Positions 4,192-34,422 of a stretch of DNA of 44,609 bases are shown here, piece after piece. How positions within the stretch are numbered: the first letter of the stretch is position 1; every line of letters starts with the position of its first letter. The DNA lies in contig JAEOTM010000113.1 of assembly GCA_016839815.1 (NCBI GenBank), positions 1-44,609 on the forward strand, in the 5' to 3' direction. The notes beneath the pieces are model-generated. The model saw only the letters and a list, made by a program, of their open reading frames with translations. It had not been told where the DNA came from and did not search any database. The translations under genes were made by a program, and so were the position numbers. The stretch comes from Candidatus Hodarchaeota archaeon (GTDB lineage Archaea; Asgardarchaeota; Heimdallarchaeia; Hodarchaeales; Hodarchaeaceae).

Positions 4192-4818
4192 TTGATAGAT
4201 AATATGCAATATTCTGGGGAATATTTGGTAAAATTGGCTAGAAGAACCATTGAAACTTATTTAAAAAGCAAAATTAAGATCAAACCGCCAAGAGATGCAC
4301 CTAATAATCTTATGGATCAATCGGGAGTGTTTGTAACACTTCATCGTGTTGATCAAGGAGATAAACCTATATTAAGAGGATGTATAGGTAGAATACAGAG
4401 TCCAGGCAGTACTCTCATTCAATCAACAATTGATTCTGCAATAGATGCAACTATTCACGATTACCGATTTCCTAATGTCAATCTTTCTGAATTAGATAAG
4501 ATTACTGTCGAAGTAACAATTCTAACCGTACCTGAAAAAATCATTGTAAAGGATCCAAAGGAATACTTTGATATTATTCAGATTGGTCGTCATGGACTAC
4601 TTGCAGAACATGGTTCAATACAACGTGGATTGTTATTACCCCAGGTACCTGTTGAACAGGGGTGGAATAAAGAAATGTATTTAGATCATGTCTGTCAGAA
4701 AGCAGGATTATCCTCGAAAGCTTGGTATAATCTGGAAACCACAATTTATAAGTTTGAAGGCTTTATATTTTCAGAGCTTACCCCCAATGGAGAAATAAAA
4801 CTAAAATCAGAGCATTAA
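4192..4818 (+). CDS. AMMECR1/AmmeMemoRadiSam protein A family
   Basis: GVFVT, LRGCIG, DYRF, GLLLPQV, CQKAG motifs. Confidence 0.95.
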   Translation: MIDNMQYSGEYLVKLARRTIETYLKSKIKIKPPRDAPNNLMDQSGVFVTLHRVDQGDKPILRGCIGRIQSPGSTLIQSTIDSAIDATIHDYRFPNVNLSELDKITVEVTILTVPEKIIVKDPKEYFDIIQIGRHGLLAEHGSIQRGLLLPQVPVEQGWNKEMYLDHVCQKAGLSSKAWYNLETTIYKFEGFIFSELTPNGEIKLKSEH

Positions 4819-5924
4819 GCCTGAAATTCTTTTAAAAACTCCTCAATTTTCTTTTTATTTAGTTTAGCAGGGAGAAGGATCTCAACTCTTTGTTTATGAT
4901 CACAACAAGGAAGATCATCTATAGCATGGAATGACGGTTTAATTCCATGATAACCTAGTTGAATTGGTCGTAGGGTACTTAGACTAACCTCTGTTTCTAA
5001 TGCATTTAATGCATCAAGACTCATTAATTCATTATTTAAATTAAAACATGTAGGACTAATAAGCGCTTGAACGCTTCCGTTTAATATGTAATTCTTACTG
5101 ATTAATTCACAGATGAGCTGACAGTAGAAACACAGGGATTTTTCATTTTTAAACATTCTAAAAAATGGTTCTAAATTAATAAATGAATGTACAGAAGAAA
5201 AAATGAATTCCACAAGTCCGATGTGTTCCTCTTCAGCTTTTTTACCGGTTTTAAAGAATATAGGAATAATTTTTACTCCCCTTTTTTTCATAAGCCAAGC
5301 TGATAGGACTGAGTTCGTATTAGGACGGAATAAGGCAATTGCAGTCCCCTGTGAGGTAGAAGGTATACCATCAATCCCAGAAATAATATCTGAATAGATA
5401 AACGCTAAATCTCCACGTATATCAACGAAAATTTCCAGCTGAGGACTTGTGAGATCAACCTTGAGTCCATGTATGTCTGAATCTAAGATTTTACTTCCCA
5501 ATTTTGCAGCAATTTCCATTGAAGAATACGGATGAACCCCTTCACGACGAACCCTTACTGCAAAGCTACTGTTTGGTGAAAACAATCTTGTAGCCTCATT
5601 TACTCCATTCTTTAGAATGGCTTCTTCATCGCCTCTACAAACAAGGACAATACTTAACGAGGAAATCCCACTAATTTGTTGAGCAATCTGGGAAACAATA
5701 TCGTGGGAAATCAATGAAGAACTGAATTTGATTAAAAGACGTCCACGGAAGTCAAGAATTGAATGTGCAATATCTTGCTTGTGGAGAAGAGAATTAATAT
5801 TTGAACGGAGTAAACTAATCATACGACGTCTAGTTCGTCGACTTTTAATTCCTAATTCTCCTCCCAGTCGTAGGAGTAAGACAGATTTACCGATTAGGTT
5901 GGAGTGGGATTGCTTGTGTTCCAA
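4815..5924 (-). CDS. THUMP-domain ThiI-like protein with degenerate PP-loop
   Basis: GELGIKS, SFAVRVRR, VDLTSP THUMP motifs; SGGxDS replaced by RPNTNS. Confidence 0.85.
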   Translation of the reverse strand: MEHKQSHSNLIGKSVLLLRLGGELGIKSRRTRRRMISLLRSNINSLLHKQDIAHSILDFRGRLLIKFSSSLISHDIVSQIAQQISGISSLSIVLVCRGDEEAILKNGVNEATRLFSPNSSFAVRVRREGVHPYSSMEIAAKLGSKILDSDIHGLKVDLTSPQLEIFVDIRGDLAFIYSDIISGIDGIPSTSQGTAIALFRPNTNSVLSAWLMKKRGVKIIPIFFKTGKKAEEEHIGLVEFIFSSVHSFINLEPFFRMFKNEKSLCFYCQLICELISKNYILNGSVQALISPTCFNLNNELMSLDALNALETEVSLSTLRPIQLGYHGIKPSFHAIDDLPCCDHKQRVEILLPAKLNKKKIEEFLKEFQA

Positions 5925-5983: not shown

Positions 5984-6057
5984 AATGAGCGATTCAGAGT
6001 AACTATAATCTATCATAGCAAAGCTCATACTTGTCAGGTTTCATCATTACGCTCATT
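5984..6057 (-). ncRNA. Box C/D guide RNA (dual guide, LSU H69 and H70/71)
   Basis: 8-bp terminal stem AATGAGCG/CGCTCATT; C ATGATGA; guide AACCTGACAAGT; D' ATGA; C' ATGATAG; guide TTATAGTTACT; D CTGA; both guides complementary to conserved 23S sequences. Confidence 0.9.
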
Positions 6058-6081
6058 ATATTATGAAAAGGAGGATTCTAC

Positions 6082-6498
6082 CTAATCCTCAAGTTCATCA
6101 TCATCTTCTTTAAGATCCTCTGAAGCTCTTATTAATTCAGCCATGGAGTATTGTTGGTCGAATTTTTTCCAAATTGCAGAAACTATCGCATCGTTCAATC
6201 CTTTAATCTTTTTAGCAACTACTTTCTTTGCTTCTTCACGTTTCTCTGGTAGCTCTGTGAATCCCCACATGGCCGCTGGAACTGCTTCTGGATTTTTCTC
6301 AATTATATATACGGTACCCTCTTGTTGTTGGAATGAAAAGAACTGAGGTTGAATGAGTGGACAATCAGATAATTTATGCAGTCCAGTCACAGTGAATAAA
6401 TGATTGCATCGAGTTTTATCAGGGGAAGTTGCTGAGGTTTTGAAAGCACAGTGACCTTTATCAAGGTATCTCCATGCTGTTATTAATTCAGTTTTCAT
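6082..6498 (-). CDS. mak16: Mak16/L28e-family 60S biogenesis factor homologue
   Basis: W..L..gHCAFK...RCNH..VTGL....CPL....F....G.VYIIEK..E..PAAMW...L follows the Mak16 N-domain; acidic tail. Confidence 0.8.
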   Translation of the reverse strand: MKTELITAWRYLDKGHCAFKTSATSPDKTRCNHLFTVTGLHKLSDCPLIQPQFFSFQQQEGTVYIIEKNPEAVPAAMWGFTELPEKREEAKKVVAKKIKGLNDAIVSAIWKKFDQQYSMAELIRASEDLKEDDDELED

Positions 6499-6554: not shown

Positions 6555-6627
6555 AGCCGCTGGTGGGACTTGAACCCACGGCCAACAGATTACAAGTCTG
6601 TCGCTCTACCAACTAAGCCACAGCGGC
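6555..6627 (-). tRNA. tRNA-Thr(TGT)
   Basis: Cloverleaf GCCGCTG...CAGCGGC; anticodon arm ACAGA-CTTGTAA-TCTGT; T-loop TTCAAGT; CCA not encoded. Confidence 0.97.
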
Positions 6628-34330: not shown

Positions 34331-34422
34331 TGGTCAGTAAGTGCAACTGTCGTCATCAGCAATATGAATTAAAAATTATTAATTCAATTAGCCTCCGTAG
34401 ACCGTCTTTTTCATCATCAGGG
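34331..34422 (-). ncRNA. Box C/D guide RNA (targets peptidyl-transferase-centre H93 region)
   Basis: C ATGATGA (34417-11); guide GACGGTCTA; D' CGGA; AT hairpin; C' TGATGA; guide CGACAGTTGCACTTA; D CTGA (34337-34). Confidence 0.8.

Follow-up and report, generated by a model that had tools for sequence, protein, structure and literature searches.

A predicted box C/D RNA of Hodarchaeales guiding A1913 and G1945 of 23S rRNA and its putative relatives in Asgard and Thermoproteota archaea

Results

Genes and features at the locus

The window (the whole stretch of DNA that was analysed, 44,609 nucleotides from a Candidatus Hodarchaeota archaeon) carries on its minus strand, read from 6057 to 5984, a box C/D RNA of 74 nt as delimited from the sequence (the true ends may differ). 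It lies between an upstream gene of the L28e/Mak16 family (mak16) and a downstream gene of the ThiI/THUMP type (Table 1). The RUGAUGA/CUGA boxes at the ends, the internal D'/C' boxes with a GA/GA core and the spacers of about 12 nt are those of archaeal box C/D sRNAs, and the terminal stem, of 8 bp in the host copy, permits a kink-turn. An earlier note on this DNA had reported four boxes and a perfect 8-bp terminal stem, and both were found, on the minus strand. It had also placed the RNA 25 nt 3' of mak16: the RNA is indeed on the same strand and directly behind the gene, but the measured gap between the mak16 stop (6082) and the stem is 24 nt.

Table 1. Features of the guide RNA and its neighbourhood in the window.
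Feature	Position	Strand	Evidence
ThiI/THUMP-type gene, downstream neighbour	4815..5924	-	Pfam THUMP and ThiI_fer
Box C/D guide RNA gene	5984..6057	-	sequence; present in each of 22 genomes of the genus
3' arm of terminal stem, CGCTCATT	5984..5991	-	pairs with 6050-6057
Box D, CTGA	5994..5997	-	invariant in genus copies
D guide, 12-nt spacer	5998..6009	-	invariant in genus; 11 Watson-Crick pairs with genus 23S
Box C', ATGATAG, core ATGA	6010..6016	-	ATGA invariant; final three bases vary
Inner stem of 2 bp with a loop of 3 nt, closes the C'/D' motif	6017..6024	-	21 genus copies
Box D', ATGA, first base non-consensus	6025..6028	-	GA in 19/21 copies; 2 are GAAA
D' guide, 12-nt spacer	6029..6040	-	invariant in genus; 10 Watson-Crick pairs with genus 23S
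Box C, ATGATGA	6041..6047	-	TGATGA invariant, genus alignment
5' arm of terminal stem, AATGAGCG	6050..6057	-	8 Watson-Crick pairs with 5984-5991
Hairpin, 7 bp, spanning the mak16 stop codon, then a short T run	6071..6090	-	sequence
L28e/Mak16-family gene, 138 aa, upstream neighbour	6082..6498	-	Pfam PF01778, E 3.5e-8
tRNA-Thr(TGT), upstream of mak16	6555..6627	-	context

In each of the 21 further genomes of the genus (22/22 with the host), the RNA stands directly behind the same L28e/Mak16 gene. The 21 distinct genus copies agree fully in both guides and in boxes C and D, and the stem arms and flanks drift. The conservation in relatives that the earlier note had proposed to check is thus borne out, the guides being identical across all 22 genomes. 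The inner stem has its G-C pair in 21/21 copies, and its second pair is C-G in 19, A-T in one and unpaired in one. Cognate flanks of the terminal stem fold with a mean of -11.65 kcal/mol, against -7.66 for non-cognate and -4.49 for shuffled flanks (21 genus copies); in a column-wise covariation analysis, the register of this stem shifts between copies. Folding energy by itself gives no significant signal (z -1.05); C/D RNAs usually behave in this way.

When the 4.24-Mb genome was scanned for boxes plus guides against the 16S and 23S rRNA of the genus, this RNA was the only locus with both guides of at least 9 bp, and each of the controls (reversed genome, reversed rRNA and antisense rRNA) gave no such locus. 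Two weaker box C/D candidates, at 34334-34417 (-) of the window and at G000:C176:10863-10915 (+), each have an 11-bp D-guide match to genus 23S; they are at the level of the controls and possibly due to chance. An Rfam search returned no family at the gathering score, only generic C/D matches with E of 0.2-10. A look-up of sequencing runs listed no RNA run that contains it, which speaks neither for nor against expression. The exact pattern of the two guides is found in 21 records among 185,579 species. Most of these have the label Hodarchaeota or Heimdallarchaeota, and one is Ca. Hodarchaeum mangrovi; we take the host to be a Hodarchaeales archaeon of the Hodarchaeum type. In several records named Thor-, Hermod- or Promethearchaeota or Bathyarchaeia (L053, L057, L051, L355) the NCBI label looks unreliable, their RNA copies being of the kind seen in Hodarchaeum or in Heimdallarchaeia family f4. 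The genome also encodes the proteins that the earlier note had wished to see confirmed: the fibrillarin and Nop5 genes are adjacent on contig C6 and L7Ae-family genes lie on C47 and C32.

The neighbourhood of the RNA is less constant outside the genus. In an order-mate (G022) mak16 and the RNA are on separate contigs, and other lineages have different neighbours; the linkage of the RNA to mak16 is confined to the genus, i.e., it is a Hodarchaeum arrangement. A tRNA-Thr is at the equivalent place in 9/22 genus loci (within the 1.5 kb examined), and the ThiI/THUMP neighbour is also downstream in L006 and L008. A homologue of the latter adjoins the RNA in two Thermoproteota genomes (L323, L325), in a different orientation. 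In seven other Thermoproteota (L185, L197, L198, L320, L326, L329, L331) the RNA divergently adjoins one and the same gene, which, judged by its N-terminus, we take to be an ATP-dependent DNA ligase. The hairpin at the mak16 stop has comparably stable counterparts in only some relatives and weak ones in most. No TATA-like motif directly precedes the RNA in the host locus, and such a motif is found in only 6/22 genus loci, mostly overlapping the stop codon; T-rich tracts are often present 3' of the 3' stem arm. The missing motif and the T-rich tracts fit a tRNA-Thr/mak16 transcript from whose 3' end the RNA would be released, a plausible route. On the other side, the RNA may have a promoter of its own, and the host genome has the hairpin with its T run at the mak16 stop.

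Pairing of the guides with 23S rRNA

The 23S rRNA is absent from the host assembly (89.5% complete), and the 23S of congeners was used as a stand-in, the target region being present in three of them (G004, G016, G001:C38). A full-length 23S in G001 (C57:307-3242, L025) was set aside: it is archaeal, yet its identity with the remaining genus copies is just around 65%, and its contig is a probable contaminant. On the congeners' rRNA, the D guide forms its 11 Watson-Crick pairs with positions 1909-1919 (E. coli numbering) in the loop of helix 69, with the +5 base, 6002, opposite A1913. The D' guide pairs through 6030-6039 with positions 1942-1951, CUUGUCAGGU in the genus, with the +5 base, 6033, opposite G1945, 32 nt from A1913. 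Each target is present once in the congener 23S, and both guides reach the complementarity of about 10 bp expected of archaeal box C/D sRNAs, the +5 pair being Watson-Crick. The complementarity to 23S whose lack was to refute the earlier note is therefore perfect for both guides in the three congeners, as a proxy for the unassembled host rRNA, and the assignment of D+5 to A1913 and of D'+5 to G1945 stands. One detail changes: the note counted one G-U pair in the D' guide, because E. coli rRNA had served as the target, and the genus 23S gives none.

We then compared guides and targets in the 13 Asgard genomes that hold both the RNA and a 23S rRNA. Guides form Watson-Crick pairs with their own rRNA at 242 of 260 positions; over 50,000 permutations of guides and targets the mean was 218 and the highest value 236, to which no p-value is attached because kin are not independent. 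At +5, each of the 26 guides forms a Watson-Crick pair, and wobbles and mismatches are more frequent in D' than in D guides. This covariation shows that guides change along with the rRNA across these genomes.

The earlier note had equated the two sites with yeast Am2256 (snR63) and Gm2288 (snR75). Yeast carries in this region Am2256, m5C2278, Am2281 and Gm2288 (PMC5199042), which project onto A, C, A and G at +0, +22, +25 and +32 of the genus 23S. As all four offsets land on the expected base, the equivalences of A1913 with Am2256 and of G1945 with Gm2288 hold.

Isolated copies of the 3' end of 23S rRNA, of about 310 nt, occur at unrelated intergenic sites in Hodarchaeum-genus genomes (G000:C192:6031-6380 and C62:2564-2844, outside the window; L029-L033, L036, L038, L041, L043, L046). 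They are 75-83% identical to genus 23S, the sarcin-ricin loop is intact in most, and most start at one 23S position, 30 nt before this loop. In G000, the two long copies are accompanied by about 11 shorter ones that are truncated at the 5' end, five of them on C196. Several copies adjoin genes that resemble, by eye, PIN/VapC or AbiE toxin-antitoxin genes. The copies could stem from attachment sites left by elements with 23S as their integration target, or represent a cassette repeat or a decoy RNA.

Distribution of the double guide across archaea

We searched Asgard genomes with a covariance model of the genus RNA and counted matches after inspection by eye. The A1913/G1945 double guide was found in families f10, f13, f14, f20, f21, f22, f23, f24 and f25. 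A wider covariance model added both genomes of a second Hodarchaeales family and gave full-length matches in 10/12 genomes of Heimdallarchaeia family f4. The double guide is present in at least 11 Asgard families, and the named records that carry it include Baldrarchaeum, Njordarchaeota, Helarchaeota and Promethearchaeota CR_4. In Heimdallarchaeia family f3 the scores are weak in all 31 genomes; the 10 genomes inspected keep the A1913 D guide and have a different D' guide, mostly moved 5 nt upstream. In a set of f3 loci (L300-L307, L314, L317-L319) the D' guide has mostly slid to the equivalent of E. coli 1940, and similarly shifted D' guides are present in Thermoproteota. Two copies of family f8, in genomes of 1.3-1.4 Mb (L267:100-173, L268:99-172), keep the A1913 D guide, and their D' spacer, shortened to about 7 nt, has no match to helix 71; these copies are probably a single-guide remnant.

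The double guide also occurs in 13/151 sampled Thermoproteota genomes, one of which is the seed of the model, and about 14 more keep the A1913 guide only. Records of Desulfurococcales and Ignisphaera carry it as well. These results do not uphold a reading of the double guide as a speciality of Asgard archaea and eukaryotes. At E<=0.005 the wider model matched none of 101 genomes from the phylum of Methanoperedens and none of 38 genomes from another archaeal phylum, two sets without a positive control. Exact patterns searched in 185,579 species found two further archaeal records with the double guide and found none in named Thermococci, methanogens or halophiles, which is not a proof of absence. 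Candidate C/D RNAs that appear to combine an A1913 D guide with unrelated D' guides were seen in L094, L103, L105 and L131 (Methanoperedens, a Thermoplasmatota archaeon and another archaeon). With the guide order swapped, we found no plausible match in 301 Asgard genomes and a single, off-by-one case (C1914 and G1945) in 301 Thermoproteota genomes.

Discussion

The boxes, the stems and the pairing described above indicate that the RNA is very probably a canonical archaeal dual-guide box C/D sRNA, its D' half being less certain than the rest. The established mechanism of such RNAs has been reviewed (PMC7994747). By analogy, L7Ae would bind at two places, the kink-turn of C/D and the C'/D' motif; a Nop5 dimer would bridge both, and two fibrillarins would be positioned. 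During assembly of the large subunit, the loop of helix 69 would then be bound by the D guide and, 32 nt further downstream, the 5' strand of helix 71 by the D' guide, as the pairing on the rRNA of congeners suggests; following the +5 rule, SAM-dependent fibrillarin would 2'-O-methylate A1913 and G1945 on pre-23S rRNA before helices 69 and 71 close. The binding of two close segments may also aid local folding of the rRNA, as has been proposed for closely spaced guide targets (Lui et al. 2018).

The same pair of targets is known from a published RNA. In the alignment of Dennis et al. 2015 (PMC4644070), where E. coli A1912 is position 2178 and G1945 is placed at 2211, the sRNA sR91 of Ignicoccus hospitalis (IHOsR91), identified by RNA-seq with 770 reads, has A2179 and G2211, i.e., A1913 and G1945, as predicted targets (Additional files 1 and 3). 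Like the Hodarchaeales RNA, sR91 carries the guide for G1945 in front of D' and the one for A1913 in front of D, and it has a similar length (69 nt) and a short internal hairpin between D' and C'. The two differ in guide bases where the rRNA diverges and in the boxes D' (CCGA in sR91) and C' (GTGAGGA); moreover, the host of sR91 is a hyperthermophilic crenarchaeon and no linkage to L28e/Mak16 is described for it. The same study predicts G2211 guides in Pyrobaculum calidifontis (sR54) and Thermoproteus tenax (sR30). The sR54 guide is likewise placed before D', but the second guide of both RNAs aims at U2233 instead of A1913. The earlier note had stated that novelty falls if both sites are routinely guided in non-Asgard archaea; the comparison with published target maps hence removes the novelty with respect to Thermoproteota, although across the seven species that Dennis et al. 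covered the A2179 target has a single occurrence. The Hodarchaeales RNA combines in one molecule, as sR91 does, a D guide to A1913 and a D' guide to G1945; it is newly described here, and the double guide itself was already known from Ignicoccus. Our literature search, which covered few subscription journals, found no study that catalogues Asgard C/D RNAs.

The RNA probably belongs to an old family common to Asgard and Thermoproteota archaea, with sR91 as a published member. The target dictates the guide sequence, and thus a resemblance in sequence is by itself no proof that the RNAs of the two phyla have a common origin; the wide distribution with a constant guide order favours such an origin without proving it. 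One could instead propose that the Asgard and Thermoproteota double guides converged on a methylation hotspot and that there is no single old family. Helices 68-71 are indeed such a hotspot in all archaea examined (Dennis et al. 2015), guides are reportedly seldom kept beyond the genus (Lui et al. 2018), neighbour genes vary by lineage with no neighbourhood common to both phyla, and an RNA of reverse order for C1914 and G1945 exists in one Thermoproteota genome. Yet 11 or more families of Asgard archaea and several groups of Thermoproteota have the same pair in the same order. The near-complete lack of the swapped order in the 301 genomes searched on either side also speaks against convergence, given that both polarities are known among other archaeal dual guides, and several Thermoproteota copies have one divergent upstream gene in common. 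We consider independent origins unlikely.

A second question is whether both halves of the RNA are active. The D'/C' boxes are non-consensus and two congeners have GAAA as box D', so the G1945 half may be the less active one. In the extreme, only the D guide would direct methylation, of A1913, and the D' guide would mainly anchor or chaperone helix 70/71, with G1945 methylated poorly or not at all. The degenerate D'/C' boxes point that way, as do the more common wobbles and mismatches in D' guides and the retention of the D guide in family f3 and many Thermoproteota, where D' has moved about 5 nt upstream or is altered. Against this, the D' guide is invariant and perfectly paired in the genus and is Watson-Crick at +5 in 13/13 genomes, and the GA/GA core and the inner G-C pair are retained. 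A D' guide that mainly anchors or chaperones seems to us decidedly unlikely, and we retain the reading in which both guides would direct methylation.

A reading that takes up the emphasis of the earlier note, of an Asgard-specific eukaryote-like snoRNA that marks a link between Hodarchaeales and eukaryotes and whose processing from a ribosome-biogenesis transcript is the ancestral arrangement, fares much worse. Yeast and Dictyostelium do methylate both sites, Njord- and Hodarchaeales are the only groups with a report of L28e/Mak16 (Eme et al.), and the adjacency to mak16 is retained throughout the genus. But sR91 and the Thermoproteota copies contradict an Asgard-specific RNA, mak16 is unlinked already in another Hodarchaeales family, and the Rfam models SNORD46 and SNORD15 do not match the RNA (SNORD46 had no match at E<=1, SNORD15 had matches only away from the locus and below the cut-off, and neither is among the Rfam matches to the RNA at E<=10), which makes this reading highly improbable. 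That the sequence arose by chance, or is part of the mak16 UTR or its terminator, would agree with the unremarkable folding energy and has next to no probability given the invariant boxes and guides, the guide-target covariation and the lack of any match in the controls.

What the family may tell about eukaryotes is a separate matter from an Asgard-specific origin. In yeast and Dictyostelium, separate snoRNAs serve the two sites. The counterparts for A1913 are yeast snR63 (Am2256), human SNORD46 (U46; Am3739), Neurospora CD33 (Am2218) and Dictyostelium CD4 (Am2522), and the Rfam snoR442 consensus terminates in the same guide followed by CUGA. Those for G1945 are yeast snR75 (Gm2288), plant U15 (Gm2278), Neurospora CD7 (Gm2250) and Dictyostelium CD14 (Gm2554). 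The snR63/SNORD46 group differs from the archaeal RNA in being listed with the A1913-equivalent target alone, in being longer and in using Snu13 and Nop56/Nop58; in the snR75/U15 group, the gene is separate from the A1913 guide, and U15 couples the G1945-equivalent site with Am2281. In Neurospora, the snR63/U46 orthologue (CD33) uses the D guide and the snR75/U15 orthologue (CD7) the D' guide (PMC2780460), the same slots as in the Hodarchaeales RNA. This match fits the split of one ancestral double guide. [quoted passage not shown] We hold this as a possibility to be doubted rather than assumed: agreement of both slots is expected by chance in one case out of four, a conserved target means that guides must resemble one another regardless of descent, and the RNA goes unrecognised by the Rfam models SNORD46 and SNORD15. 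If true, two named snoRNAs trace to one archaeal gene.

Archaeal guides and their sites are reportedly seldom retained over long times or beyond the genus (Lui et al. 2018). Taken as a single gene, the RNA is ordinary; its probable conservation across two phyla is unusual among archaeal guides, and the family would be a counter-example to that view, with one target pair at the subunit interface and one box order in two phyla. Hodarchaeales are now in culture (Imachi et al., bioRxiv 2025.02.26.640444). One target pair and one box order in two phyla, together with eukaryotes that methylate both sites, make the methylations of A1913 and G1945 good candidates for inheritance from the archaeal host.
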